From: Candidatus Levyibacteriota bacterium
GTDB taxonomy: Bacteria > Patescibacteriota > Microgenomatia > Levybacterales > UBA12049
Direction of reading: 5' to 3'
NCBI GenBank assembly: GCA_029260905.1
Contig: JAJDCH010000012.1
Location: 2,249-66,248 of the forward strand
DNA length: 64,000 bases
Made by a program: the position numbers and the translations under genes. Position 1 is the first letter of the stretch. Every line of letters begins with the position of its first letter. This document shows, piece by piece, positions 4,569 to 51,686 of this stretch. Under the pieces are notes generated by a model, which had not been told where the DNA came from, ran no database searches, and worked only from the letters and a program-made list of their open reading frames with translations.

Positions 4569-4572
4569 TATG

Positions 4573-4586
4573 AAACTCAAAACTCA
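4573..4586 (+). repeat. AAACTCA x2 heptamer repeat at codons 2-5 of the secreted-protein gene
   Basis: Direct reading; the same heptamer occurs in ileS. Confidence 0.7.
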
Positions 4587-4619
4587 AATTTATAAAAATA
4601 ATCTTTGTCTTTTGCTTAC

Positions 4620-4647
4620 CACTTTTTGCTTATCACTTTTTGCTTAT
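4620..4647 (+). repeat. CACTTTTTGCTTAT x2 (14-mer) perfect tandem repeat, preceded by a partial copy, in the signal-peptide coding region
   Basis: Direct reading. Confidence 0.75.
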
Positions 4648-5938
4648 CACTCCTGTTTTTGCTGAATCTACTACTACAGATATTGCTCTTGATTTCTTAA
4701 GATCCAAGCAGGACTCTACCGGAAGAATAAATACTGGCTTTTCTGCTCCTTCTCAATGGTCTTCAATTGCTTTTGCATCCCAAAATATTAACATTTCAGA
4801 TGTCAAAAATCCCGATGTATCACTTCTTGATTTTCTCAAAACAGATATTCCTATTGATCCATCAGCAGCAACAGATTGGGAAACAAAAATTCTAGCAATT
4901 GTTGCAATTGGTAGTAATCCATCAAATTTTAACGGTGAAAACTTTATTAAAAACCTTGAAGACTTTCACACTGATGGACAAATTGGTGATATATGCTCTT
5001 TAAATGACGATATCTTTGGACTACTCGCACTCACCGCAAGCGGAAAGTTGGCTGACAACAAGATAAAACAAGACGCACTTAATTTTATTATTGATAATCA
5101 GGACGAAACTAATGGAGGATTTGGTTTTTCTGCTCCTGGCTGTGAATGGTATAACACATCAACAGACATGACAGCAGCAGGACTTCACGCTTTAGTATCA
5201 GCCAGGGATAGCGGTATGGAAGCAGCAGGGTTTGATGATGCTATAGATCAGGCAAAAAATTATCTTTTTTCAAACCAAAATTCTGATGGAGGATTTGGAT
5301 ATTCGGAGAAATCTGATTCAGACACAACTGGCTGGGTAATAATTGGTCTAAATGCTGCAGGTCTTAGTAGCTCAACTGAGGCAAAAAATGCCAAAAGCTG
5401 GCTTCTTACACAACAATCAGAATCAGATGGAGGTTTTACTGCTTTTGATTGGGGAACAAGTGAATTTGTATCCAATGCCACAACTACCTCTCATGCGATC
5501 CTTGCCATAAACGGTAAAACATGGATTTCCAAAATTTATCAAGCATCAACTGATGACATCATCCCAACTTCTACTCCCTCTCCGACAAATATGCCAACCC
5601 CTAGTCCAACTCTGACGCCAACACCAACAGCTACTCCTACAACATTAAGCACCACCAACAGCAACACAACCAATATCTACAATTACTCATCTGGCTTGGG
5701 ACAAGACACAGACAACATCAATAAGTATCTACAAAACCAAACACCAAAAGAACAAATCAATCAAGTTCTCGGAGAAAAAACAAAAAATGAAAATCATGAA
5801 GAAATAAAGATTGAAAATTTAAATAGTGGACTCAGAAGAATCTTTGCTGAAATATTCTTTTTTCTCGGAATAGCAACTTTAAGTTTTTATATAGGCGGTT
5901 TAAATCAAAAGAAAAAAGTTTCTCAAAAGTTGTTATAA
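4640..5938 (+). CDS. Secreted alpha/alpha-toroid protein with prenyltransferase/squalene-cyclase-type repeats (transcobalamin alpha-domain-like), ending in a P/T-rich linker and a C-terminal TM anchor. The 5' end is frameshifted relative to its ATG and signal peptide
   Basis: Repeated QxxxGG(F/W) motifs: QDSTGRINTGF, QDETNGGFGF, QNSDGGFGYS, QQSESDGGFTAF. The PTPSPT linker is followed by a hydrophobic C-terminus. The track's start is a TTG at 4640 and leaves no signal peptide. Confidence 0.55.
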   Translation: MLITPVFAESTTTDIALDFLRSKQDSTGRINTGFSAPSQWSSIAFASQNINISDVKNPDVSLLDFLKTDIPIDPSAATDWETKILAIVAIGSNPSNFNGENFIKNLEDFHTDGQIGDICSLNDDIFGLLALTASGKLADNKIKQDALNFIIDNQDETNGGFGFSAPGCEWYNTSTDMTAAGLHALVSARDSGMEAAGFDDAIDQAKNYLFSNQNSDGGFGYSEKSDSDTTGWVIIGLNAAGLSSSTEAKNAKSWLLTQQSESDGGFTAFDWGTSEFVSNATTTSHAILAINGKTWISKIYQASTDDIIPTSTPSPTNMPTPSPTLTPTPTATPTTLSTTNSNTTNIYNYSSGLGQDTDNINKYLQNQTPKEQINQVLGEKTKNENHEEIKIENLNSGLRRIFAEIFFFLGIATLSFYIGGLNQKKKVSQKLL

Positions 5939-23867: not shown

Positions 23868-25106
23868 TTATTTACCATTGGTTATTTTTTCAATTGCTTT
23901 AAGGGCAATCGCGCTCTCATTCCATTCCTCCTCACCTCTTCCGTAATTCATAGATTTCTCATGCCCCTTTCCTGTTAACAGAACAATATCGCCCTTTTTT
24001 GCAATTGATACAGCAAATAATATCGCTTCTCTCCGATCTTTTATTTTATAAACATTTTGAACTTTACGTTTTGAGCTTTTTGTTCCAAGTTCTATCTCAT
24101 CCATTATCCCACCCGCATCTTCACTACGCGGATCCTCAGACGTCAGAATAATAACATCAGCATTCTCAGCTGATATCTTTCCCATTTCAGATCTTTTATA
24201 TTTATCTCTCTCACCTGCCGCTCCAAAAACATGAATAAGTCTACCATTGGTTATTTTTTTTATCTCAGGAAGTACACTTAAAAATGAATTTGGTGTATGT
24301 GCAAAATCATTTATAATCTTAAATTCATTGTCATAGACAATTTCCTGTCTGCCTTTTGGTAAAGAAAAAGTCTTAATCCCATCTCTTATCAAGACGTCAG
24401 GTATACCAATCTGTCTAGCAACAGAAATAGCAGCAAGACAATTATAAAGATTAAATTTCCCAATTAAATTTGTTTCAAAAGGAAAAACATCGGGATTTAC
24501 ATCTGAGTCATTTTTCAAACCATAAGTAATCATTTTTCTTTCCTTAATTCCTAGTTCATAATTCATAATTCTTTCATAGGATTTATCATCTTTATTAATA
24601 ATTGCAGTTTTTGCGGCTTTTAAAAGCCTGGCCTTTACATCAACATATCTATCATATGTTTTGTGATAATCTAAGTGCTCATTTGAAACATTGGTAAGTA
24701 CTCCGATCTCAACCGGTATTCCAAATGCCCTATACTGATCAAGAGCATGTGATGTTAACTCCAACACGACATATTCAACACCCATATTTTTTGATTTTCT
24801 CAGATATGATTGAAGAGCAAATCTCCCGGGAGTTGTGACATGATAGCCAATATCTGATGACTTATCTTTAATTGTCGCGCCAATTGTCGAGATAAGCGAA
24901 ACGTCTTTTCCTGAATTAGATAAAATATGAAAAATCAAATTTGCAGTTGTTGTTTTTCCATCAGTTCCAGTAACACCAATAACTCTTAATTTTCTGGATG
25001 GAAACCAGTATATAAGATTGGCAAGTAACGCCTGACCGAGATGATACTGATTCTTTGCCTGTTGCCACATAGTTTGCTTGTATAGTATATCAAAATTCAA
25101 GCACAA
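23868..25106 (-). CDS. murE: Mur ligase, most likely UDP-MurNAc-L-Ala-D-Glu:diamino-acid ligase MurE, with a shortened N-terminal domain
   Basis: P-loop VIGVTGTDGKTTTANLI and the MurE-like TSEDPRSED (DNPR-type) motif. It sits directly downstream of ftsI. Confidence 0.65.
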   Translation of the reverse strand: MCLNFDILYKQTMWQQAKNQYHLGQALLANLIYWFPSRKLRVIGVTGTDGKTTTANLIFHILSNSGKDVSLISTIGATIKDKSSDIGYHVTTPGRFALQSYLRKSKNMGVEYVVLELTSHALDQYRAFGIPVEIGVLTNVSNEHLDYHKTYDRYVDVKARLLKAAKTAIINKDDKSYERIMNYELGIKERKMITYGLKNDSDVNPDVFPFETNLIGKFNLYNCLAAISVARQIGIPDVLIRDGIKTFSLPKGRQEIVYDNEFKIINDFAHTPNSFLSVLPEIKKITNGRLIHVFGAAGERDKYKRSEMGKISAENADVIILTSEDPRSEDAGGIMDEIELGTKSSKRKVQNVYKIKDRREAILFAVSIAKKGDIVLLTGKGHEKSMNYGRGEEEWNESAIALKAIEKITNGK

Positions 25107-27737: not shown

Positions 27738-28648
27738 ATCTTTTCAAAAACTCTTAATTTTGCACTTCTGCTTCTTGGATTCATATCGATCTCTTCATCT
27801 CCTGGCGCGATTGGTTTTTTTGTAACTATTATCCCCTTTCCTATCTCTGCCCATTTTTTGAATTCATTCTTTACTATCCTATCCTCAAGTGAGTGAAAAG
27901 AAATAATTGCTATCCTACCACCTTCTTCAATCACATCAAGTGCTCTTGGCAAAAAATCTCTTAAACTATTCAACTCATCATTTATGGCAATCCTCAATGC
28001 CTGAAATACTTTGGTGGCTGGATTTATTTTCCCGCCACTGCTTCTTACCACTTTCCTAACAATCTCTGACAGTTCCCAAGTTGTCTCTATCTTTTTCACT
28101 TGACGGGCGCTGACAATAGCGCTAGCAATGGCTTTGGCATGATAATCTTCACCAAGTTTATTAAAAAGCTCATACAATTCTCCTTTCGTTAAAATATTTA
28201 CTAAATCTCCTGCTTTGACATTAAGATTTCTATCCATCCGCATATCAAGAGGGCCAAGATTCATAAAACTAAAACCCCGCTCACCCTCATCAATCTGATG
28301 GCTAGAAACCCCAAGATCAACCAAAACTCCTGCGACCGGATCAAATTCATTCTCTTTTACAATTTTTTCTATGTCTTTAAAATTCCCCTGAACCAAAATC
28401 AAATTCTCACCTATTCTTAAATCTTTAATCTTAAATCTTAAATCTGTTTCCGAATAATCTAAAGCGTCTTGATCCAGATCTATACTCAAGACTTTTCCAC
28501 CTCGCTCTAAAATTTCCCCCGTGTGTCCTCCTCCTCCTAAAGTGCCATCTACATAATGCTTCTCAGGCTTGACTTTTAATAAATCTATCGTCTCCTTCAA
28601 AAGTACTGTTTTATGAAAAAAACCAGCTTGTCTATTGTTATCAGTCAT
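27734..28648 (-). CDS. rsmH: 16S rRNA (cytosine1402-N4)-methyltransferase RsmH (MraW)
   Basis: HKTVLLKETIDLL...YVDGTLGGGGHTGEIL. Confidence 0.9.
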   Translation of the reverse strand: MTDNNRQAGFFHKTVLLKETIDLLKVKPEKHYVDGTLGGGGHTGEILERGGKVLSIDLDQDALDYSETDLRFKIKDLRIGENLILVQGNFKDIEKIVKENEFDPVAGVLVDLGVSSHQIDEGERGFSFMNLGPLDMRMDRNLNVKAGDLVNILTKGELYELFNKLGEDYHAKAIASAIVSARQVKKIETTWELSEIVRKVVRSSGGKINPATKVFQALRIAINDELNSLRDFLPRALDVIEEGGRIAIISFHSLEDRIVKNEFKKWAEIGKGIIVTKKPIAPGDEEIDMNPRSRSAKLRVFEKI

Positions 28649-28661
28649 AAATTATCAGTTA

Positions 28662-29093
28662 TCAGTCTGTAGTATTGGATAGTTTTTCAGCTATCGCTTC
28701 GATATTCCCACTCAAACTTTTCTGATGATCATTCCAAACCTTTTTATCCCAGATCTCAACAAATCTCTCAATTCCTGCAAAGATTATCTCTGTCTTTATA
28801 TCTGCAAACTCTCTCAAATATGATGGAAGCACAAATCTTCCCTTGTTATCCAAATCTAAATCAGTTGCATTTCCCAATAAAAATCTCTGCAATTCCCTGG
28901 TATTTTTACTTGTAAAAGGCCTTCCCTCAGTTCCCTCAAGTAACGTTTTCCAATTCTTAACTGAAACAACAATCAGACAATTCTCAAATCCCTTTGTTAT
29001 TATTATTTTTTGTCCAAGAACATCTCTAAACTTTTTCGGCAATGCTGTTTGGTTTTTTTCACTAACTTTAGCTTCATACTGACCTATTAACAT
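28662..29093 (-). CDS. mraZ: Transcriptional regulator MraZ
   Basis: Two MraZ repeats (MLIGQYEAKVSEKNQTALPKKFRDVLG... and ...DLDNKGRFVLPSYLREFA); first gene of the dcw cluster. Confidence 0.85.
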   Translation of the reverse strand: MLIGQYEAKVSEKNQTALPKKFRDVLGQKIIITKGFENCLIVVSVKNWKTLLEGTEGRPFTSKNTRELQRFLLGNATDLDLDNKGRFVLPSYLREFADIKTEIIFAGIERFVEIWDKKVWNDHQKSLSGNIEAIAEKLSNTTD

Positions 29094-31567: not shown

Positions 31568-32113
31568 TTAGTTAATTTTGGTGAAGATTCTGAGGGATTT
31601 GAGACGACGCTCGAGTATGTTTTCTATAAATTGCTCTGAATCAAATGCTTGAGCAAACTGCTGCTTATTCCAGTACCCCAAAAGGCTCAAAAGGCTTACT
31701 TCAAAATCAGCCACAATCTTCTCGATATTATTTTGATTATCAGATAATCTATCAAGTGTGTCAACTAGCAACTCAAACACTTCCATATTTTCCTGATTTT
31801 CAGGACAAAGCCCATCAACGATCTCACAAAGATGATAACTTGGAGGAATTTTATCCATATTATTTTTTATCTCAGCAAAATTATTAATTGTTATCGCCTC
31901 AGTCAAAATAGGATATGAATTGCCTTGATAAAGAGTGAAGACACCATGATTGAGAAGCTCTATATGGCCTGCCCTGCGGCTTGTGATCTTACGTACACCT
32001 GTCCCGCGGACAAAAATCTTACCATGAGTTTTGGTAAAAATAGTAAGAACACGATCCTGATCCTTATAATTACGTCTTCTTATAACCACTCCCTCTGTTT
32101 TGAAATTCTTCAT
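31568..32113 (-). CDS. recO: DNA repair protein RecO (short form)
   Basis: N-terminal OB-fold pattern MKNFKTEGVVIRRRNYKDQDRVLTIFTKTHGKIFVRGTGVRK matches the RecO N-terminus. Confidence 0.65.
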   Translation of the reverse strand: MKNFKTEGVVIRRRNYKDQDRVLTIFTKTHGKIFVRGTGVRKITSRRAGHIELLNHGVFTLYQGNSYPILTEAITINNFAEIKNNMDKIPPSYHLCEIVDGLCPENQENMEVFELLVDTLDRLSDNQNNIEKIVADFEVSLLSLLGYWNKQQFAQAFDSEQFIENILERRLKSLRIFTKIN

Positions 32114-34149
32114 ATTTCAAGCTCAAGTTCTTTATCTGACAAGAGCGGGAATTCATCAATGACCTCATCGTTTACAACGATCGTGTATTGGTTATCATAA
32201 GTACCAGGCTGTTTTTGGATAAGAACAGGAAGTGGAGATCCTTTCTCAAGCTTAAATGGAAGAGTGTATGTGATTTCAAATTCAGCAGCTCCTTTGGGAC
32301 GCACTGTCAAAAAGCCCTCAAAGACAGTCTTTCCAAACTCCTCATAAGTACTTACCTTGACTTGAGATCCTTTACTATTAATCAGCTTACTGCCTTTTGG
32401 CACATAGATCCTAAACCAATCACGATATTCTGCATTTAGACAAAGCCCACCTGATTCAAGATTACAATCACTTGGAGGGAAAGGATTTTTATAATTAACA
32501 GTCACAGTTTTGGTAATTACGCCATCTTCAATCTGATACTTTTGCTCTACAGCCTCCTCCATAAAGATATTTACCTTCGCGCCAGAAAAACTACTTTCAT
32601 TAATATGCAGATAATCCCCTTCAAAATCCTTTATCCTACCTGCTGCATTTAAACCCTCGATGCCTTTTTGAGCTTGCTCATCATATAAATAAACAAGTAG
32701 ATGCTTTTCATTAATTTGTGTCAGCATTGATTGAAAAAGCGGACCCCAGTAAATCTTGGGACTTGATGAAAGAGCCTTTGTCATAATAGCTTGCAAGAGA
32801 TCTCCTAGAAGTCCTTTTCTGTCTGTTTTAACATAATTAACAGGACGTGAGATATTATCTTCCAATTCATAAATAACTTGTGGACAATCACACCTCGCAT
32901 CTTCTTTGGTGTTGAATTCGACACCTCCTGCAGTAACGGTATCATCAAGAATTTTAATAGTTGAGACAAGAACATTTGTATCAATTGCGACTATTCCATC
33001 AACATCAACACTTGTTGTTGCCTTTTCATAAAGTTTATTAAACTCTTCCATTGAGGTTATGAAATCAGGCGATAAATTACTGTCTCTCAAATTGGCTTGA
33101 GGAACTTTTGGCAAATATTTGAGAATTGGGGCTGATGCCTTTCCCTTGTTTGGTATCGAATCATCAAGATTGTAGATGTCCTCAGACTTATCAATATGAA
33201 TAACACCTTTATCAAGCCTGAATATCGCATATCCTGTCAGGAAACCACCTGTTGGTCTTAGCTCCTTATCATTCTGGAAAAGAATCAGATATTTCTTTTC
33301 CTCCTTCTCACCAAGAAGCGAAGGCAACACTTTTATAAGTGGCTTTGCATCGCTTACAAACGTAACCCCTTCATCTGTGAGATTCTTTACCATTGCTATC
33401 TGTGTCTGGATCTTTTCACCAAAGATAAGCTTAGGGTAATGCTGGGGATCTACCTTATCCATCTCTTCTTTGACTTTATCAAGGCTTTCTGAAATCTTAT
33501 CAATTTGTGGCGTTATCTTTCCCGCCGTAAGAACTGCTGTCTTGATTCTATCTTCTGCTGATCCTTCAGCAAAGCTTCCCTGCCCCTTAAGCCCCAAAAC
33601 ATCTGCATAAGGTTTAAGCGAGTCAACCACAATTGTTGCCGAATCAAGTCCATGCGCGCCAGCTGCCATCATGTGTTCTGCATCATTATAATACCAGTTA
33701 ACAACTGGGACTATTTTCAATGGAAGTAAAAATGCAAAATTTCTCCTGGTTGCCCCAAGCTCTTTTTTGGTTTTTTCAATCTCAACTGATGCTAGTTCAA
33801 TATTTTGGGTTTTTATTGCCTCAGCAGTAAGTCTCGCCTGATGATAAGTCTTTATTCCAGAACGGTATGTAGCATAAGCAGGAATACTAATAAGCCCAAA
33901 AAGAACAAGAACAATAAGAAACGCCACTCTAACTTTTTTGGGAATCCCAAATTTATTTTTTTTACTTCTTTTTCCCATATTAAAATTTGTATTCTTCCAA
34001 TCGCTTTGACCTTTTTCTTTTGAGAGACGAGAATGCACAACCGTTCCTTTTTGTCCCCAGTCACGTCCTGAATTTTTTGAAACAGGAATTCTCAATCCTG
34101 AATCGGATTTGGAATTATTATTTCCTAGCTCAATCTTATCAAACCCCAT
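32110..34149 (-). CDS. Membrane-anchored extracytoplasmic protein, DUF4012-like (envelope-polysaccharide associated)
   Basis: TM helix VAFLIVLVLFGLISIPAYA; motif FQNDKELRPTGGFLTGYAIF is recalled as DUF4012-like. The likely start is the ATG at complement 34147-34149 or 33976-33978. The track's 5' extension to 34353 runs into the IS promoter region. Confidence 0.5.
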   Translation of the reverse strand: MGFDKIELGNNNSKSDSGLRIPVSKNSGRDWGQKGTVVHSRLSKEKGQSDWKNTNFNMGKRSKKNKFGIPKKVRVAFLIVLVLFGLISIPAYATYRSGIKTYHQARLTAEAIKTQNIELASVEIEKTKKELGATRRNFAFLLPLKIVPVVNWYYNDAEHMMAAGAHGLDSATIVVDSLKPYADVLGLKGQGSFAEGSAEDRIKTAVLTAGKITPQIDKISESLDKVKEEMDKVDPQHYPKLIFGEKIQTQIAMVKNLTDEGVTFVSDAKPLIKVLPSLLGEKEEKKYLILFQNDKELRPTGGFLTGYAIFRLDKGVIHIDKSEDIYNLDDSIPNKGKASAPILKYLPKVPQANLRDSNLSPDFITSMEEFNKLYEKATTSVDVDGIVAIDTNVLVSTIKILDDTVTAGGVEFNTKEDARCDCPQVIYELEDNISRPVNYVKTDRKGLLGDLLQAIMTKALSSSPKIYWGPLFQSMLTQINEKHLLVYLYDEQAQKGIEGLNAAGRIKDFEGDYLHINESSFSGAKVNIFMEEAVEQKYQIEDGVITKTVTVNYKNPFPPSDCNLESGGLCLNAEYRDWFRIYVPKGSKLINSKGSQVKVSTYEEFGKTVFEGFLTVRPKGAAEFEITYTLPFKLEKGSPLPVLIQKQPGTYDNQYTIVVNDEVIDEFPLLSDKELELEI

Positions 34150-34208
34150 CACTATATCATAGTGAAACAAAATAAGCTTTGTCAACTTGACAAAACGGCA
34201 CTTATCCC

Positions 34209-34237
34209 TTGACAACAAGGAAATAGTATGATATACT
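34209..34237 (+). promoter_or_regulatory. Sigma70-type promoter inside the left IR: TTGACA, 17 nt, TATACT. It abuts the transposase ATG, so the mRNA is probably leaderless
   Basis: Hexamers at 34209-34214 and 34232-34237. ATG codons lie at 34238 and 34244. Confidence 0.5.
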
Positions 34238-35149
34238 ATGCCTATGACAAATAAATTTAGCCTTAGACAATTTAAGAGAAAATATGGTACACATGATATG
34301 TGCCTTGAAGCTATCAAGCAATTACGCTTTCCTGACCCATACACTTGCCCCAAATGTAATTCAGAGCAAAAGTTTTATCCTGTTAAGGGTCGCACTTCCT
34401 ATGCTTGTAATTCATGCGGTCATCACATCTATCCTCTAGCTGGTACAATCTTTGAGAAATCCACTACTCCACTTGATCTATGGTTTTTCGCTATGTATCT
34501 AATGGTACAAACACGAAGCGGTATATCCGCCAAACAGCTTGAGAGAATGCTAGGCGTTACATATAAGACTGCATGGCGTATGTTTAAGCAAATCAGAATG
34601 TTAATGGCTGAAACAGGCGGAGGGCTTTTAGACGGGATTGTTGAGATAGATGAGACTTTTGTAGGCGGTAAGGGCAAGAATAGAGCCTATGAATGGAAAC
34701 AGGAAGTTGAGGAGAAAGAAAAACAAATCTTAATGGGTTTTATCCAAAGAGAGGGCAAAGCATATATAAAACACATACCAAATACAGGTAAATATACTCT
34801 TTTAAGACAAGTTAAAGAAAATGTTAGTCCTACTGCTAGGGTTATGACAGATGAGTTTATGTCTTATCACGGATTAACTCAAATGGGATACTTTCATCAA
34901 TCAGTCAAACACAAAGCTAGAGAGTACGCTAGAGGCGATGTACACACTCAAAGCATTGAGAGCTTCTGGGGTGGCTTGAAAAGAGGTATATATGGTGTAT
35001 ACCGAGTAGTAAGTAAAAAATATCTTCAAGCCTATGCTGATGAGTACGCATGGAGATACAATTACAGATTACATCAAGGCGGAATGTTTGAGTTGCTACT
35101 TAATCAAGTAGCTGAGGTTAAGGCTTTGAAGGCTGAGAAGCTCGTTTAA
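34238..35149 (+). CDS. IS1595-family (ISXO2-like) DDE transposase with an N-terminal zinc ribbon
   Basis: CPKCNSEQKFYPV...CNSCGHH zinc ribbon, EIDETFVGGKGKN and DEFMSYHGL DDE-region motifs typical of IS1595 transposases. Confidence 0.8.
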   Translation: MPMTNKFSLRQFKRKYGTHDMCLEAIKQLRFPDPYTCPKCNSEQKFYPVKGRTSYACNSCGHHIYPLAGTIFEKSTTPLDLWFFAMYLMVQTRSGISAKQLERMLGVTYKTAWRMFKQIRMLMAETGGGLLDGIVEIDETFVGGKGKNRAYEWKQEVEEKEKQILMGFIQREGKAYIKHIPNTGKYTLLRQVKENVSPTARVMTDEFMSYHGLTQMGYFHQSVKHKAREYARGDVHTQSIESFWGGLKRGIYGVYRVVSKKYLQAYADEYAWRYNYRLHQGGMFELLLNQVAEVKALKAEKLV

Positions 35150-35214: not shown

Positions 35215-35694
35215 TTATCCTTTGGGCTGAATTGTCTTTTTTTGTTTGCCATCTTTTTTTCCTACCTCCTTTTCTTCTTTCTTTTTCTGAATATAATTAT
35301 AGGCTTGAAAAGCTAACGGAATAAAAATTGTAGCTAAGCCTTCAATTTTTTTGTCGTACATAAGTAGTCCTGCTCCAACAAGTATCATTGTAATTGTAAT
35401 TACAAAAGCAGCTATTATTCCCAGTCGTTCATTTAGAACATTTGAGCCTATTACTTTCCCTTCTATGCCTTGTCTATGCTTTACTTGACCTTCAAAGACT
35501 TTAATAATTCTATTAGCTGCTCCAGGACATATTTCTTCATACTTTTGCAAAATACTAGGATGTGGCAGAGGACCTGCAAAACTTTGCGAAACCATTATTG
35601 AGGTTTGTCTTGTGTTTTGGGCAGGATTAGATGTTGGCTGTTCTGTAGGCTGCTGCCTGTTCTGGATTTTCTTGTTCATATTGCTTGATTGCAT
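35215..35694 (-). CDS. Passenger ORF: membrane protein with a GPLPHPSILQKYEEICPG motif (DUF2335-like) and two C-terminal TM helices
   Basis: Motif recalled from memory as DUF2335-like. An alternative start at complement 35595 (MVSQSF...) would remove the overlap with the next ORF. Confidence 0.4.
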   Translation of the reverse strand: MQSSNMNKKIQNRQQPTEQPTSNPAQNTRQTSIMVSQSFAGPLPHPSILQKYEEICPGAANRIIKVFEGQVKHRQGIEGKVIGSNVLNERLGIIAAFVITITMILVGAGLLMYDKKIEGLATIFIPLAFQAYNYIQKKKEEKEVGKKDGKQKKTIQPKG

Positions 35695-36004: not shown

Positions 36005-36670
36005 TCAAAGAGCACCGCGACCAGAGATCATAGCCCATGGAGTTTTGAGAATTATCCAAAAATCATAAAAAATTGATCTTCTTTTCGCATACTCAGCATC
36101 CATCTGGATTCTTTTATCAAAATTAATATCAGACCTTCCGGCAACCTGCCAAAAACCTGTAATTCCAGGCTTGACCGAAAGCACGACTTTTACTGCATCT
36201 TTTGTATAAGGATATTTCTTCTGTTGCTCAGTCAACTCATCTGGATAATATGCGCGAGGTCCAACTATACTCATCTCACCTTTTAAGACATTTATAAATT
36301 GGGGTAATTCATCAAGTGAATACTTTCTGATAAATTTTCCAACCTTTGTAATTCTTGGATCATTCTTTAGCTTATAGCTTCCTTTTTTATAAGCATTATA
36401 TAGTTCTTTATAACGCGGATCTTTTCTAAGCAGGATGTGAGCATCTTTCACCATTGAACGAAATTTATACATCTTGAAGCGTTTCCCAAACTGACCAACC
36501 CTTTCTGGTGTATCAGCAAGAATTGTTCCTTTTGAATTTAATTTTATTGCAATAGTAACAGCAATAATAATGGGAGAAAATATGAAAAGGAGGATGATTG
36601 ACAAAATTACATCAATAATTCTTTTGGCAGTATCATAAAGGCCCTTTTTTTCTGATTCTTTATTTGACAT
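36005..36670 (-). CDS. Polyprenyl-phosphate hexose-1-phosphate transferase (small monotopic bacterial sugar transferase, PglC/WbaP C-terminal type)
   Basis: KRFKMYKFRSM and the signature DELPQFINVLKGEMSIVGPRA. Confidence 0.85.
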   Translation of the reverse strand: MSNKESEKKGLYDTAKRIIDVILSIILLFIFSPIIIAVTIAIKLNSKGTILADTPERVGQFGKRFKMYKFRSMVKDAHILLRKDPRYKELYNAYKKGSYKLKNDPRITKVGKFIRKYSLDELPQFINVLKGEMSIVGPRAYYPDELTEQQKKYPYTKDAVKVVLSVKPGITGFWQVAGRSDINFDKRIQMDAEYAKRRSIFYDFWIILKTPWAMISGRGAL

Positions 36671-36673
36671 TTC

Positions 36674-37759
36674 TTATGCTAAGTGTTCGTGTTTAGTACC
36701 CTCAAGTTTTTCAACAAACTTCTTAACCTTTGGTATTGAACTTTTCGGACAAACAAGTGTAACATCATCAGTTTGCACAACAACCATCTCCTCAAGATCA
36801 ATACCTACAACAAGACTTTTACCACCAATATTATAAACAAGTGAATCTGAACTATCCTCAACCAAAACATTGCCTCTTATAACATTATCTTTTTCTTTTT
36901 CGGAAAGTGCCTCCTTGAGCGCCTCCCATGCGCCAATATCGCTCCATTCAATGTTTTCTGAAATAACATATGCATCTTTTGGATCAAGCTTTTCCAAAAT
37001 CACATTGTCAAAATGAATTTTTTCAAGGTCCGGATAAATCTTTCCCAAAACTTCATAAAAATTATCAGTACCCCAAGAATCAACTATTTCTTTAAGTCCT
37101 TTATAAACATCTGGCGCAAACTTTTGATATTTCTTCCACAAAAAATCAGGCGTTGTAACAAAATAGCCCAAATTCCAAGTATGCTCTCCGCTTGTCAAAT
37201 ATCTTTTTGCAGTTTCACTATCAGGCCTGTATTTAAAGTCAACAAATGAATAAAAAGGAATATCGTTTCTACTTGATACAGGGTCACCATGTTTTATCCA
37301 GCCAAGGTTCTCACTTGCAAATCTAGGCTTTTGCGAAACAAAAACAATTCTATCTTTTTCTTCAGTTATTATCTCGCCTGCTGTTTTTAGTATTTTCCTG
37401 AAATGCTTTTCATTTTTAACCAAATGATCACTCCAAAGAATTACCATTGGCTCATCTGGCGCAACTTTAGTTAAGATACCAGCCATCAGACCAACAGCTG
37501 GTCCCACATCCCGCATCTTTGGCTCTCCCACCACATGATCATGGGGAAGATCTGGCAACTGCTTTCTTACTATATCTACATACGATTTTCCTGTTGCCAC
37601 AAATATATCTTCATATTTAAAATCTGGCTGAAGTCTTTCAACTGCCAACTGAAGGGTAGATTTATCCCCAACAATTTTCTCAAACTGCTTTGGAGTGTTT
37701 TTTCTTGAGAGTGGCCACAGCCTGCTACCAACTCCTCCTGCAAAAATCACAATTTTCAT
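36674..37759 (-). CDS. Mannose-1-phosphate guanylyltransferase-like NDP-sugar pyrophosphorylase
   Basis: MKIVIFAGGVGSRLWPLSRKNTPKQF N-terminus, typical of ManC/GMP. Confidence 0.7.
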   Translation of the reverse strand: MKIVIFAGGVGSRLWPLSRKNTPKQFEKIVGDKSTLQLAVERLQPDFKYEDIFVATGKSYVDIVRKQLPDLPHDHVVGEPKMRDVGPAVGLMAGILTKVAPDEPMVILWSDHLVKNEKHFRKILKTAGEIITEEKDRIVFVSQKPRFASENLGWIKHGDPVSSRNDIPFYSFVDFKYRPDSETAKRYLTSGEHTWNLGYFVTTPDFLWKKYQKFAPDVYKGLKEIVDSWGTDNFYEVLGKIYPDLEKIHFDNVILEKLDPKDAYVISENIEWSDIGAWEALKEALSEKEKDNVIRGNVLVEDSSDSLVYNIGGKSLVVGIDLEEMVVVQTDDVTLVCPKSSIPKVKKFVEKLEGTKHEHLA

Positions 37760-37777
37760 ACTTTACACATTATAATA

Positions 37778-38857
37778 TCAAAAAAGATTATTAACAACTA
37801 TTTGAAAACTTTTCTTAAAATTTTCAAATTTAAATTTGCTCGAATTCACCACTGCGCCTTCAGGATTTAGCTTTAGTCCATTAAATTTTTTAATTGCTCC
37901 AATTAGTGATTCTTTGGTTTGCTTTTCAAATAAGATTCCTGTTTTATTATCAATTACAATCTCTCTTGCGCCACCTTTTTCAAAAGCAATAATAGGTTTT
38001 CCAAAAATTTGGGCCTCAATCATCACCAATCCCAAATCTTCATATCCAGGAAAAATAAGCGCCTTACAGCTTCGATAATACTTAATAAGCTCTTCATCGC
38101 TTACTTTTCCAACAAATTCAACAGTTGGTCCTGATATTTTTTTATAATACTCAATATCACCATCACCAACTATCTTGAGGTTAATTCCAAGCTCATTTGC
38201 AGCAGCGATTGCAAGATCAACTCTCTTGTACTTTGTAAACTTCGAAAGCCTGGAAACAACCACGAAGTAATTTCCTTCCCTTGATTCTTGATTCTTGATT
38301 CTTGATTCTAACGTTACTGGTGGATAAACAACATCTGCTTCACGTTTGTAATATTTCTTAATCCTTTTTCTAACCTCCTCTGAGATGGCAACAATCTGGT
38401 CAGGCCTTTTTGATGCCTGCAAATCCCAAATTCTCAAACCATTAATAATTGGTTTTGATAATAAACGCAAAATCTTATTTGAAAAATATTCATCATAACC
38501 ACTCCAAAGATAACGAGTGGGAGTAAGCATATAACAGAGGTGCTTTGTCTTTCCTGTTGTTATTATTCCTTTTGCAGACTCGGACGTAACAGATATAACT
38601 AAATCAAAATCTTTAAAATTAAAAGATTCAAAAGCAAATGGCATAAATGGCGCAAAAAATTGATGATAATTTTTTGCAAAAGGAATATTTTGCAAAAAAG
38701 ATGGATTTACCTTAAAAACTTTAGCCCAGGAAGCCTTGTCTTTGTCATAAACAGATGTAAAAAGAGGAGCATCAGGATACAATTTATGAAGTGCCAAAAG
38801 AACACGTTCTGCTCCTCCCCATTTATTTACCCTATCATAGACAAAAGCTACACGCAT
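37778..38857 (-). CDS. GT4-family (GT-B) glycosyltransferase containing an in-frame heptamer repeat
   Basis: C-terminal EX7E region EDLGLVMIEAQIFGKPIIAFEKGGAREIV. GAATCAA x4 encodes LESRIKNQESRE. Confidence 0.8.
   Translation of the reverse strand: MRVAFVYDRVNKWGGAERVLLALHKLYPDAPLFTSVYDKDKASWAKVFKVNPSFLQNIPFAKNYHQFFAPFMPFAFESFNFKDFDLVISVTSESAKGIITTGKTKHLCYMLTPTRYLWSGYDEYFSNKILRLLSKPIINGLRIWDLQASKRPDQIVAISEEVRKRIKKYYKREADVVYPPVTLESRIKNQESREGNYFVVVSRLSKFTKYKRVDLAIAAANELGINLKIVGDGDIEYYKKISGPTVEFVGKVSDEELIKYYRSCKALIFPGYEDLGLVMIEAQIFGKPIIAFEKGGAREIVIDNKTGILFEKQTKESLIGAIKKFNGLKLNPEGAVVNSSKFKFENFKKSFQIVVNNLF
38281..38308 (-). repeat. GAATCAA x4 (plus strand TTGATTC x4) perfect tandem heptamer inside the GT4 gene
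   Basis: Direct reading. Confidence 0.85.
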
Positions 38858-38901
38858 ATTTTGGCTTATGGCATATAGCTTATGGCATATTGAACCACAA
38901 A

Positions 38902-40077
38902 CTACTTACTACCCGCTACCTCCTTATAAATATTTATTGTTTGTTTTGCCATTTTTTCCCAGGAATACTTCCTAACCCATCCCAGACCCGAGTCAATAAT
39001 TTCTTTTTTCTTTTTATCATCAAGTACATAGACTTCATTCATCTTTTTTGCTATATCCCCAACTGAATTTGGATCAAAATAAAATGCGTGAGTAGAAAGA
39101 ACCTCTCTAAAAACAGCAATATCAGAAACTGCAACCAGAGAACCATGGGATATTGCCTCAACGGGAGTCAAACCAAATCCTTCAGCAAGAGATGGAGAAA
39201 GTAAAGCAATTGAATTCTCATAAAGTCCATAGAGCTCAGCATCTTTTACATTATGTTTAAACACTATGTTTGTGTAATTCTCTTTGTCGATTTTCTCTTC
39301 AAGTTTTTTATAAAAATAATCATCTTTTCCAACAAGAATAAGCATCACATCTTCATTAATATTCGTTCTAAAAACAGAAAATGCTCTTATCAATTTTTCC
39401 AGATTTTTATGCGGATATGCATTCCCAACATATAAAAAGTATGAAGTATTATGTATTAAGTATTTAGTGTTATTTTTTCTTTCCCCTGATGCTTTATGCT
39501 TGCTACTTGATACTGCATAGCCCACTCCCTCATATGTCACTGCAATCTTATCCTCATGAACCCCAAGTGTCTCAATAAGATCTTTCCCAACCGTCTCAGT
39601 TGGAACAATTATTTTCTTTGCTTTATCTACTGCACGTTTTACAACATATTTATAACCAAGCCGCTTGAGATTATACAAAGAAAGGGGAAGAGTGGATGCC
39701 TTGCCTGTCGGGAAATGGCTTATGATCAGATCGTGAATTGTAATAACATACGGCTTTTTATAAAAAGCAGGTGCAGAAAAATATGGAAAGTGCATCAGGT
39801 CAAGCTCCTCTTTATTCAAAATCATGGGAAATCTAACCTGTTCTTCAATTGAATGCCAACGAATATCAGCAATAACAATTTTCCAGTTTTTACTAATTCC
39901 CAATTCCTTACCTGCCTTGCCGGCAAGTAGGTTCCTTATTACTTCATAATCTCTACTGCGGATAAACAAAACATATTCATTGTCTTCATCAATCTTTTGC
40001 AATTCACTAACTAGATTTCTGATATATCTACCAACCCCAGTCTGTCCCCACAGCCTGCAATCAATGCCTATTTTCAT
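38902..40077 (-). CDS. GT4-family glycosyltransferase
   Basis: AEGFGLTPVEAISHGSLVAVSDIAVFREV (EX7E). Confidence 0.8.
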   Translation of the reverse strand: MKIGIDCRLWGQTGVGRYIRNLVSELQKIDEDNEYVLFIRSRDYEVIRNLLAGKAGKELGISKNWKIVIADIRWHSIEEQVRFPMILNKEELDLMHFPYFSAPAFYKKPYVITIHDLIISHFPTGKASTLPLSLYNLKRLGYKYVVKRAVDKAKKIIVPTETVGKDLIETLGVHEDKIAVTYEGVGYAVSSSKHKASGERKNNTKYLIHNTSYFLYVGNAYPHKNLEKLIRAFSVFRTNINEDVMLILVGKDDYFYKKLEEKIDKENYTNIVFKHNVKDAELYGLYENSIALLSPSLAEGFGLTPVEAISHGSLVAVSDIAVFREVLSTHAFYFDPNSVGDIAKKMNEVYVLDDKKKKEIIDSGLGWVRKYSWEKMAKQTINIYKEVAGSK

Positions 40078-41013: not shown

Positions 41014-41453
41014 CGTAAATCTTACTCCTTATATCCTACATCTTCATAAACCCGATTTAGTTTCTCAGCTATACTTTTCCAGGTATATTTTTGCTCCACC
41101 AACTTCCGTCCATTTTTACTTATTCTTTCATAAAGTTTTTCATCTTCCAAAAGACTTATGGTTTTTATTGCCAAATCAATTGATAGATCAGATGCCATAA
41201 TGTCCTCATTATCTTTTGCGCCAAGACTATCTGCGCTCATTTTTGTGGTTATAACTGGTGTTCCACAACTCATGCTTTCCAAAATCTTATAACTTGTCCC
41301 ACCACCAACTCTTATTGGAGCAAGCAAGACATCTGCTTTCTGAAAAATCTTCTCAGTTGGCAATTCAGAATTTTTTTCATCGAACAAAATATCTGGATCA
41401 TTTGTTAGATTTTTAATTGAGGTAGAAATTTTTCTCCCCACAACCCACAACTG

Positions 41454-41478
41454 GATCTTTGATCTTTGATCTTTGATC
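41454..41478 (-). repeat. GATCTTT x3.6 tandem heptamer (coding strand GATCAAA), sitting at the frameshift point
   Basis: Direct reading. Confidence 0.85.
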
Positions 41479-41563
41479 TAATTTTTGGCCAGATTTCTTC
41501 AATTATGAATTTTACAGAATCTCTATTTTGTATCCATTTAAAATCTCCAATAAATAGTATCTG

Positions 41564-41596
41564 CTTTGATCTTTGATCTTTGATCTTTGATCTTTG
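41564..41596 (-). repeat. CTTTGAT x4.7 tandem heptamer (second tract of the same unit, translated as QRSKIKDQRSKQ)
   Basis: Direct reading. Confidence 0.85.
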
Positions 41597-42232
41597 GAGA
41601 AACACGAACTTTTCCGTATCCACTCCATTTGAAACAACTTCAGCGCTAGCTCCTGCATCCCTCATCACTTTTTTATCTTCTTCAGAAACAGCAATCAATT
41701 TGTCGGCTTTTTTCCACGAAGCTTCTTCTTCTTTTTTTATTTTTGCGATATCAATATTCAAAAATGGTCGCATAAAAAAAGGCGCTTTGTCAACAAATCT
41801 CTGATAAACCTGATATTCGATATTGTGCTCTGCCAAAACAATTGGAATCTTTGTTGTGGGCAGATTGTGCATGACATAAAATGTTTCAATGTGAATAAGA
41901 TCATATTTATTTTCTTTCAACTCTTTCTCAATCTCTTCTTTAAGCAAAAAATTGGTATGTCCGATTCTTAGAAAAGAATCATTACCCTTTATTGAATAAA
42001 AAACATTTTTCAAAGACCACTGTCTACCTGTCGCAACTGAAATTACTTTTTTACAAATTTTCTGAAGAACTTTTATATCATTATCAGTTATCGTTTGCCT
42101 AAATCTTTTCTCACAAATAAGTGTAATTTCGTGTTTTTTCGACAACTCTTTTAAGAGATTAAATAGCCGCACTTGTCCACCAGAATACAAAGGGTATGGA
42201 AAATAAGATGAAACAACAAGTATCTTCATAAA

Positions 42233-49995: not shown

Positions 49996-51147
49996 TCATT
50001 TATCGCTTCCTGCTGCTTTTTGTATAACCCTAAGTGTTTCCTTTGCTGTTTTTTCCCAACTAAATTTCTTTATCTGTTTTTTTCCTTTTTCTACCAATTC
50101 TTTTCTCAAATCCTTATCATCAACTAGCCTTTTGATCTTCTCAGCTATATCATCAACATCTTCTGGATCTACGTAAAGCGCTGCATCTCCCCCAACTTCA
50201 GGCAGACTACTGACATTACTTGTTATTACCGGACAACCATCTTTCATCGCCTCGAGAACAGGAAGTCCAAATCCCTCGTAGAGAGATGGGAGGACAAAAC
50301 AGATCGCATTTTTATACAAAATACTTAAATCACGATCATCAACATTTTCAAGAAACTTAACCTGTTTTTCAATACCAAATTTTTGTGGGGCTGATAAAAT
50401 TTCTTCAAACTGCCAACCCTTCTTACCAACAATCACCAGCTCCAGATCCGCTTTGCTTAGTACTTTATACTTAACACTTAATACTTTACTGAATGCCTCT
50501 ATTAACTTTGCAATATTTTTCCTAGGCTGAAGAGTCCCAACAAAAAGAACAAAATTATTACCTATTTTATATTTTTTCTTGAAATCCTTCATATTTCCTA
50601 AATCATAAGTCTTAAAACTTAAATCATTTTTAATTCCGGGATATGTAACCACCACCTCGCTTGATGACTTTTTATACTCCCTGATTATATCATTTTTACT
50701 TGAATTACTGATTGTAAGAATACTCTTTGCATTTCGCACTGAATACTTTGTCCAACTTTTTAGTTGATGTAGGTCATTTGCATTAAAAAGCTCAGAAAAA
50801 TACAAATATGATAAATCCATTACTGATATTACCGTTGGACATGGTGAGAGTCTGGGAGCATAGTGACTGGGGCTAAAAAAAACATCAGGCTTTATCCCAC
50901 CAAAAAATAAATCCAAGGGCAACCTCCATTGTGTCCACAGCCTGCCAGGCCTTAAGACTCGGTACTTCCAATTGCCAGATTCTTTTGGCATATCAGAGAG
51001 CTGCTTATTCTTTAGATAAACAACAAAACTAATGGCTGATGGCTGATGACTGATGACTGAAAACTCCCTCAATAATTCAAACGCGTATTGTCCTATTCCG
51101 ACGCGCTTTTCTACATTTGCCTCATTTCCATCAATTCCAATTATCAT
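49996..51147 (-). CDS. GT4-family glycosyltransferase with an in-frame heptamer repeat near its N-terminus
   Basis: [36 protein letters not shown]. The tract ATGGCTG/ATGACTG x4 encodes [11 protein letters not shown]. Confidence 0.8.
51032..51059 (-). repeat. ATGGCTG ATGGCTG ATGACTG ATGACTG tandem heptamer (coding strand CAGTCAT/CAGCCAT) inside the GT4 gene
   Basis: Direct reading. Confidence 0.8.
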
Positions 51148-51149
51148 AA

Positions 51150-51686
51150 TTACATTCCCGGACTTGCAACGGACAATCTATCCCGCTTAATTCCAAGTAT
51201 TTCAATTGCATCAGTTCTTGTTTGATCTGAAATACAAATTATCTGATCACATTCCTTCTTTACCCAATTCAATCTTCGCCTTTGAGTTTGAACTATCCTG
51301 CTATGAGTCTCTTCTGGATATCGATAAACAATAAGGTCATAAAGAATAGTCACTTTTTTGGCGCGTTTAGTTGGAGGCTGTGTCCAGTCAGATGAGACAA
51401 AAACATCAACTGGTCCAATCAATTCTTCAATTGGCATTATGTGAAGCTGATTCCAAAAAACATCAAGCATGGTCGATGGCATCTTCTTTAGATTAAGAGT
51501 AAAATTTTTATTTCTTTCTGCTATGTCTTTTGCAAATTGAGGTACTTTTTTCCGGAGGGAAGAGAAAAAAAGAATATATTCATTTTTTTTATCAACTGCT
51601 GCCAAATTCTCAACCAAATTTTGCACATAGTTTGCAACACCTGTATTCTCGTATGCAGTTTGTGATATGTCTATTCCTATTTTCAT
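51150..51686 (-). CDS. GT4 N-terminal-domain-only protein, a likely remnant of a duplicated glycosyltransferase
   Basis: MKIGIDISQTAYENTGVANYVQNL parallels the N-terminus of the adjacent full-length GT4 ([25 protein letters not shown]). There is no EX7E C-domain. Its stop overlaps the next start (ATGA). Confidence 0.45.
   Translation of the reverse strand: MKIGIDISQTAYENTGVANYVQNLVENLAAVDKKNEYILFFSSLRKKVPQFAKDIAERNKNFTLNLKKMPSTMLDVFWNQLHIMPIEELIGPVDVFVSSDWTQPPTKRAKKVTILYDLIVYRYPEETHSRIVQTQRRRLNWVKKECDQIICISDQTRTDAIEILGIKRDRLSVASPGM

Follow-up and report, generated by a model that had tools for sequence, protein, structure and literature searches.

A heptanucleotide repeat in the hinge of a Levybacteria glycosyltransferase gene: candidate slippage switch or tolerated by-product

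Can a seven-nucleotide repeat in the middle of a conserved glycosyltransferase gene act as a genetic switch, or is it a by-product of replication slippage that the enzyme tolerates? The question is raised by a 64,000-nucleotide stretch from a Candidatus Levyibacteriota bacterium (assembly GCA_029260905.1, contig JAJDCH010000012.1, positions 2,249 to 66,248; hereafter the window), in which a gene for a family GT4 glycosyltransferase, here called GT4-A, carries a perfect tract of four GAATCAA units (Table 1). A slippage-prone heptanucleotide switch of the contingency type, probably of low rate, is a plausible, unproven explanation for which the chances appear evenly divided. Replication slippage would create a heptanucleotide microsatellite in a permissive, disordered hinge of the enzyme, and the present copy number, which is in frame, would represent the ON state. 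As 7 is not divisible by 3, slippage by one or two units in either direction would shift the frame and leave an N-domain-only fragment of about 208-233 amino acids (aa), devoid of the C-terminal Glycos_transf_1 domain. A further slip, or a change of three units, would bring the frame back, giving a reversible, probably low-rate ON/OFF locus, and similar arrays at three loop positions of Levybacteria glycosyltransferase genes would lead to stochastic variation of the surface glycan. What the evidence below shows is the tract, its consequences for the frame, its place in a disordered linker, the restriction of arrays to glycosyltransferases across the lineage and one OFF allele at a tract in a neighbouring gene; that slippage would run at a biologically useful rate and that switching would be adaptive is inferred.

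The tract itself is unambiguous. Tandem Repeats Finder (TRF) reports period 7, 4.3 copies and 100% matches at 38280-38309 (+ strand unit CTTGATT), and a second, independent exact scan returns the same 30-nucleotide (nt) perfect period-7 run, within which GAATCAA x4 is the reverse complement of 38281-38308. The minus-strand open reading frame (ORF) that contains it is stop-free over 359 aa and reads through ...YPPVTLESRIKNQESREGNYFVVVSRL..., so that TRF, exact scan and translation agree with the first-pass annotation, which had described four perfect in-frame copies in an intact GT4 gene. In 100 simulations of the window that preserved dinucleotide content, no period-7 tract of at least 21 nt arose (the longest reached 19 nt), whereas the real window contains three (30, 26 and 33 nt), all of them in GT4 genes. 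The 30-nt tract is far beyond chance expectation.

The consequences of slippage for the reading frame are equally direct. When the copy number is changed in silico by -2, -1, +1 or +2, the first stop falls at aa 208, 226, 215 or 233, respectively; the claim that a change of one copy in either direction would truncate the enzyme after its N-domain is borne out by the stops at aa 226 and 215. Changes of -3 and +3 copies leave the frame open and give products of 352 and 366 aa. As in simple sequence repeat (SSR) contingency loci, the repeat is perfect, lies within an ORF and has a unit length not divisible by 3; in silico, unit gain or loss brings a premature stop and a further change returns the frame.

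Sequence profiles and structure prediction place the tract between the two halves of the enzyme. Pfam matches Glycos_transf_1 (PF00534) at aa 185-325 with an E-value of 1e-23 (84.1 bits against a cut-off of 26.4) and, weakly, Glyco_transf_4 at aa 83-184 in the N-domain; an NCBIfam search of GT4-A found no model above its cut-off. The C-domain of GT4 enzymes carries an E-x7-E motif, and the spacing of E273 and E281, which are invariant in an alignment with 36 homologues (alignment A1), fits it; the strongly conserved core also includes LTPTRYLWSGY. An AlphaFold model based on an alignment with the 36 homologues has a mean predicted local distance difference test score (pLDDT) of 90.7 and a predicted template modelling score of 0.88. 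It consists of two beta/alpha domains, with alternating elements over aa 3-170 and 197-310, and the two Rossmann-like domains with their linker correspond, as modelled, to the GT-B fold. Residues 181-196 are coil and aa 181-190 form the block of lowest confidence (pLDDT 66), which makes the tract (aa 183-194) the hinge between the domains.

The first-pass annotation had regarded the tract as an insert, and this is contradicted by the orthologues. Measured between the YPP and VSRL motifs, the linker of GT4-A is 57 nt long, while 154 orthologues span 48-219 nt with a median of 63-69 nt; the linker is therefore shorter than usual, and the tract is the linker itself rather than an addition to it. 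When orthologues were checked for the same 28-nt stretch, none shared it; they carry different heptamer units or none at this site. In the GT4-A-type linker, 41 of the 154 orthologues have a perfect period-7 run of 14 nt or more, for which the chance expectation is estimated at roughly 1-2% per linker, and in 10 of 154 the run reaches 21 nt or more. The units include TATCAAG x5 (locus L040), CAAATAT x5 (L163), AAATACG (L003), AAGTATC (L018, L035), AATGGCA (L027, L050) and GAATCAG (L004). Many more linkers hold degenerate relics; two such arrays, when translated, give the recurrent peptide EIRNPKQ..NTKYKIQNT. That so many different units occupy one linker means that arrays turn over yet keep reappearing.

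The orthologous hinge also harbours sequence of another kind. In genomes that are otherwise A+T-rich, G+C-rich, apparently palindromic in-frame inserts occur there (L035 2099-2212, L046 5932-6099, L005 2279-2404; proteins P0019, P0053 and P0055), encoding peptides such as TLSLARRAGPP.... They may be small hairpin elements, or elements resembling miniature inverted-repeat transposable elements, that the linker tolerates.

Across the lineage, heptamers dominate the repeat spectrum. A genome set of 80 loci, each representing a species (875 kb), contains 41 perfect tracts of three or more copies with period 7 against 0-2 for periods 5, 6 and 8-15. TRF detects 134 arrays with period 7, whereas periods 6, 8 and 9 account for 4, 17 and 13. 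In an independent metagenome set of 80 loci (651 kb) the perfect tracts number 28 against 0-1 for other periods. Over both sets (1.5 Mb), 69 perfect heptamer tracts of at least three copies stand against 0-2 for periods 5, 6, 8 and 9. The lineage arrays lie inside glycosyltransferase ORFs, have 3-6 units, are A-rich on the coding strand and are stop-free in all frames. Glycosyltransferases make up all 30 ORFs with perfect arrays (about 22 GT4, 6 PMT_2 and 2 GT2), 44 of the 46 with imperfect arrays only and hence 74 of 76 array-bearing ORFs, compared with 52 of 120 (43%) random array-free ORFs from the same loci. No arrays were found in the nucleotidyltransferase (NTP-transferase), Bac_transf, DUF4012 or RecO genes of the examined loci. 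In neighbouring genes, which belong to different glycosyltransferase families, arrays cluster in three places (counted from the gene start, about +130-200, +520-635 and +670-750 nt), and those of the window match them (GT4-D; GT4-A, GT4-B and GT4-C; and GT4-C tract 2, respectively).

Heptamer arrays are present in four GT4 genes of the island, 37778-38857 and three sisters (GT4-B, GT4-C and GT4-D in Table 1). The earlier count of three glycosyltransferases with tracts was correct as to their presence and one gene too low. That neighbouring GT4 genes carry tracts of this kind was right: GT4-C, the split gene, is out of frame exactly at its second tract, and the array of GT4-D is imperfect and sits in an N-terminal loop rather than in the linker. 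In GT4-C the N-terminal part reads through ...EEIWPKIRSKIKDQRS and the C-terminal part begins at (Q)LWVVGRK; only tract 2 and 3 nt separate the two. Adding one copy or removing two at tract 2 restores a 404-aa GT4 enzyme in silico, whereas copy changes at tract 1 do not restore the frame. One added copy also yields the 12-aa spacing seen in orthologues L060 and L032 (L060, L032 and L001 were compared). A 1-nt insertion at the border of tract 2 may alternatively account for the break.

A second locus far from the island reads in a similar way. A gene for a secreted alpha/alpha-toroid protein (prenyltransferase/SQHop_cyclase-like; 4570-5938, + strand) has a 14-nt (2x7) repeat in its signal-peptide region at 4610-4651, namely TTTTGCTTA(C/T)CACT x3. 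In the assembled sequence the ATG at 4570 is not in frame with the rest of the gene, and translation from it ends after 31 aa. With one copy the protein would read MKLKTQIYKNNLCLLLITPVFA and continue into ES... (446 aa), and with four copies it would have 460 aa and a canonical signal peptide likewise. The heptamer AAACTCA x2.3 follows the ATG at 4573-4588. Taken at face value, the assembled window contains two SSR-localised OFF alleles, GT4-C tract 2 and the 4610-4651 repeat.

Copy-number change by a single unit is visible between close relatives at one intergenic site. Loci L151 and L152 are 99.6% identical over 11.4 kb, with a single indel between them: a 7-nt unit (AATTCAT) of an imperfect heptamer array (L151 8925-9010, L152 8925-9017). 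The array lies immediately upstream of a promoter-like site (TTGACA-N18-TATGAT) that precedes the DUF4012 gene. In a population from Rifle, two of three assemblies (L081, L082) have a 100-N gap exactly over the orthologous linker, and two short contigs (L084, L085) switch to unrelated sequence inside the linker repeat. These breaks are suggestive; they fit heterogeneity and also repeat-induced assembly failure.

Other candidates for altered alleles were discarded. An automated screen called L059 OFF, but the break in its frame comes from a 1-nt indel that lies about 10 nt downstream of the tract; the name of the contig gives a coverage of about 4.6x. The tracts at L004 4376 and L060 7082 are gene-end tracts with stop codons. 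L012 and L176, with a nucleotide identity of 91.5%, show a linker scrambled at equal length in place of a clean copy change. Their hinges (L012 1928-2067, L176 4641-4780) differ at 7 of 9 consecutive residues, as though by compensating frameshifts within the heptamer array.

Several observations weigh against a switch. All 154 orthologues are in frame across the linker, and the 72 perfect tracts divide into 67 within intact ORFs, 4 between genes or at gene ends and a single OFF tract (GT4-C tract 2). Classic contingency loci show far more OFF alleles than this. With conserved synteny and about 60% identity across the lineage, GT4-A, placed near the priming transferase, is a core gene rather than an accessory one, and the classic contingency model does not explain either its core nature or the near-universal ON state. 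At least 24 contigs carry P0115, an orthologue with a short tract, in identical form. Copy numbers are low (3-6), and Haemophilus influenzae heptanucleotide tracts reach 38 units (PMC2651432) against the four of GT4-A. That the tract lies mid-gene is as compatible with structural tolerance as with the design of a switch. Essential genes of the window contain imperfect arrays too, namely IleRS (86-114 and 445-477), RsmH/MraW (28415-28445) and a Mur ligase (24545-24571), so a switching role is no precondition for an array. Another lies at the mraZ-rsmH junction (28637-28666). These housekeeping-gene arrays have 73-91% matches, about 4-4.7 copies and interruptions; the GT4-A tract at 38280-38309 and the GT4-C tracts are perfect. 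The species is represented once in the collections searched, and the tract is accordingly known from a single allele. Bacterial heptamer over-representation has, moreover, been attributed to polymerase-slippage bias (PMC4692102).

Most of these points can be accommodated by supposing that the arrays are a tolerated by-product of a strong 7-nt slippage bias, an explanation with real standing whose chances are put somewhat short of even. Arrays would then arise everywhere and survive only where changes in length and composition do no harm, in GT-B hinges, loops and intergenic DNA, while purifying selection keeps the frame; the GT4-A tract would be just a hydrophilic linker of low complexity, free of any regulatory role, and OFF variants would be rare deleterious mutants. 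The in-frame state of every orthologue, the rarity of OFF tracts (1 of 72) and the conservation and synteny of GT4-A fit this well, as does the placement of the tract in the coil of lowest pLDDT, within a linker whose length varies so widely. So do the concentration of arrays at three loop positions in different glycosyltransferase families, the imperfect arrays in IleRS, RsmH and the Mur ligase, and the polymerase-based heptamer bias proposed in PMC4692102. About 24% of TRF arrays lie outside ORFs of at least 150 aa, a portion that amounts to about 13% of the loci, and this excess suggests a general 7-nt slippage propensity that coding DNA filters down to glycosyltransferases.

Yet under pure tolerance, coding sequence should hold no fewer 6- and 9-nt arrays than 7-nt ones, and the 6- and 9-nt kinds are nearly absent. 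Growth of a 7-nt array within a gene passes through frameshifted intermediates, which implies that the host genes have repeatedly been OFF in the past. The other proteins encoded at the same loci have loops too, yet they account for at most 2 of the 76 array-bearing ORFs. Many arrays are perfect, implying ongoing slippage rather than old frozen sequence, and the two SSR-localised OFF alleles of the window are likewise awkward for tolerance alone.

Direct comparison of GT4-A alleles is limited by the distance of its relatives. An exact-protein look-up of GT4-A gave no match; in protein collections no relative exceeds 66% identity and the protein is alone in its 90% cluster, and the best identities are 63% in the genome scan and 62% in the metagenome scan. 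The Bac_transf protein of the window has an exact match only on a 1.4-kb Logan contig (run SRR15505512), and the exact NTP-transferase protein and GT4-C N-terminal ORF are not on record. Among ten 90%-identity orthologue clusters, no members differ by 7 aa, and linker lengths are equal. Apparent exceptions were set aside: the short members P0127 and P0128 are C-terminal fragments caused by 100-N scaffold gaps over the linker, P0152 and P0153 have a frameshift upstream of the linker at RIKKYY codons, outside any heptamer array, and the contigs of P0122 and P0123 diverge inside the repeat into unrelated sequence, probably through chimeric joins. Repeats of this kind thereby give rise to gaps, chimeric sequences and seemingly truncated entries in public protein sets.

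The equal linker lengths tell against a further, very improbable explanation, that steps of three units (7 aa) tune the length of the hinge and hence domain closure, acceptor range or activity. The open frames after changes of three copies and the wide range of linker lengths among orthologues would suit such tuning, yet no close-relative pair with a 21-nt difference was found, and a -3 allele would leave a 36-nt linker, below the minimum of 48 nt among the 154 orthologues; single-unit slips can also be expected to be commoner than triple ones. Least credible of all is that the tract length or the GT4-C split is an assembly or sequencing artefact, for although metagenome-assembled genomes of the set contain random 1-nt frameshifts (L059, L001), repeats break or mis-join assemblies (L081, L082, L084, L085) and a small-k assembler could miscount two GT4-C tracts that share a unit and lie 85 nt apart, assemblers do not invent a 30-nt perfect repeat in an intact ORF, GT4-A is in frame, and like tracts occur in more than 70 independent assemblies from many projects.

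Table 1. Glycosyltransferase genes, heptamer tracts and conserved neighbours in the window
Feature	Position	Strand	Basis or remark
GT4-A, intact 359-aa GT4/GT-B glycosyltransferase, conserved Levybacteria orthologue; linker = tract	37778..38857	-	Pfam, alignment, AlphaFold
Perfect heptanucleotide tract (GAATCAA)x4 + 2 nt	38280..38309	-	encodes LESRIKNQESRE, aa 183-194
GT4-B, intact 391-aa GT4	38902..40077	-	Pfam
Degenerate heptamer array in GT4-B linker, 5.1 copies, 79% matches, encodes ...NNTKYLIHNTSYFL	39437..39472	-	TRF
GT4-C, split GT4: 274-aa N-terminal ORF 41405-42229 and 142-aa C-terminal ORF 41022-41450	41022..42229	-	Pfam, ORFs
GT4-C tract 1, GATCAAA-type, 33 nt perfect, in linker, in frame with N-terminal part	41564..41596	-	exact scan
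GT4-C tract 2, GATCAAA-type, 26 nt perfect; frame break here, between ...EEIWPKI and LWVVGRK...	41454..41479	-	in silico
GT4-D, intact 383-aa GT4	49996..51147	-	Pfam
Imperfect heptamer array in GT4-D N-terminal loop (not linker), 4.7 copies, 88% matches	51028..51060	-	TRF
Sugar nucleotidyltransferase, conserved downstream neighbour of GT4-A	36674..37759	-	Pfam, synteny
Bac_transf priming phosphoglycosyl transferase, conserved neighbour	36005..36670	-	Pfam

The surroundings of GT4-A indicate the kind of pathway in which it may serve. [quoted passage not shown] The cluster in the window comprises GT4 enzymes, the priming Bac_transf, the NTP-transferase, GT2 enzymes, a PMT_2/GT-C protein, a Wzy_C-like protein and an ABC exporter; judged by these annotations, GT4-A probably acts on a surface or interaction structure. 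Between the Bac_transf gene (36005-36670) and the DUF4012 gene (32110-34353) lie an IS1595-family transposase (34238-35149, + strand) and a DUF2335 gene (35215-35694, - strand); in other Levybacteria loci the Bac_transf and DUF4012 genes are adjacent.

Further repeats and fragments accompany the sister genes. The spacer of 44 nt between GT4-B and the start codon of GT4-A contains a perfect 14-nt direct duplication, GCTTATGGCATATA x1.9, at 38864-38890. The GT4-B hinge, NNTKYLIHNTSYFL, belongs to an AATAC-type heptamer family that abuts the YFL strand, and the same is true of some GT4-A orthologues (L003, L005, L016, L018), with NTKYKIQNTGYFL. This sharing points to convergence or to gene conversion between the paralogues. 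Next to GT4-D, a 178-aa ORF on the minus strand (51150-51686) encodes a Glyco_transf_4 N-domain only and ends 3 nt before the complete GT4 gene; it may be an orphan or remnant half-gene.

A single tract of this sort is a known kind of feature, and the lineage-wide pattern, heptamer-only and restricted to glycosyltransferases, is the more interesting one. A tentative extrapolation, more doubtful than secure, is that Levybacteria, and perhaps other CPR/Patescibacteria, possess a heptanucleotide 'phasome' in which each lineage has dozens of glycosyltransferase genes with slippage-prone arrays at set places in hinges or loops. If so, ultra-small, probably episymbiotic populations would reshuffle their surface glycans stochastically, for example against phages or for host attachment. 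Literature searches turned up no report of SSR phase variation in CPR bacteria, and this would be the first SSR contingency system described there. The CPR holds a large share of bacterial diversity, and surface variation within it is almost unexplored. Should the tracts switch, perfect heptamer arrays in glycosyltransferase hinges would provide a read-level signature of stochastic surface-glycan variation in uncultured ultra-small bacteria and would reveal which glycan genes face fluctuating selection. Even without adaptive switching, a microsatellite spectrum confined to 7-nt units and to glycosyltransferases is an unusual mutational pattern that needs explanation. There is a practical warning as well, in that the arrays break or mis-join metagenome assemblies and can mimic pseudogenes.

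The closest parallels are found in Neisseria meningitidis and Neisseria gonorrhoeae, where phase variation of pglE is controlled by a heptanucleotide repeat (PMC7157529). As in GT4-A, the repeat is intragenic, lies in a glycosyltransferase gene for a surface glycan and shifts the frame when a unit is gained or lost. Several glycosyltransferases of the pathway carry repeats in both systems, and in Neisseria they combine into 'phasotypes' (PMC7157529). Switching has been demonstrated there in isolates, whereas Levybacteria are known from sequence, with a consensus that is almost always ON. The host also differs, being an uncultured environmental CPR bacterium, as does the position of the tract, mid-gene in a GT-B hinge. 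Other Neisseria pgl genes use poly-G tracts, whereas the SSRs of Levybacteria are essentially all heptamers.

The contingency loci of H. influenzae resemble the Levybacteria tracts in that SSR units are not multiples of 3 and are concentrated in surface-structure genes. Heptanucleotide SSRs count there among the candidate phase-variation mediators; one of them is an intragenic (AATTTTG)14 tract associated with a frameshift (PMC2651432). The lipooligosaccharide (LOS) glycosyltransferases of H. influenzae carry tetranucleotide repeats, and its heptanucleotide repeats are at hmw1A/hmw2A and in TonB-receptor genes; unlike the Levybacteria tracts, these loci show both ON and OFF alleles among strains. 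The capsule and LOS glycosyltransferases of Campylobacter jejuni offer a similar case, with many glycan-modifying genes per genome carrying SSRs that are hypermutable there and diversify the surface (PMC8437040); the tracts are homopolymeric poly-G, and switching has been shown experimentally. A lineage-specific dominance of 7-nt repeats over other unit sizes also has a precedent. A 2007 survey, as cited within PMC4692102, reports an excess of heptameric SSRs, with GGGAATC in Xanthomonas and GGGGA(T/C)T in Nostoc. The arrays of Xanthomonas and Nostoc are G-rich and intergenic, whereas those of Levybacteria are A-rich on the coding strand and lie in glycosyltransferase ORFs.

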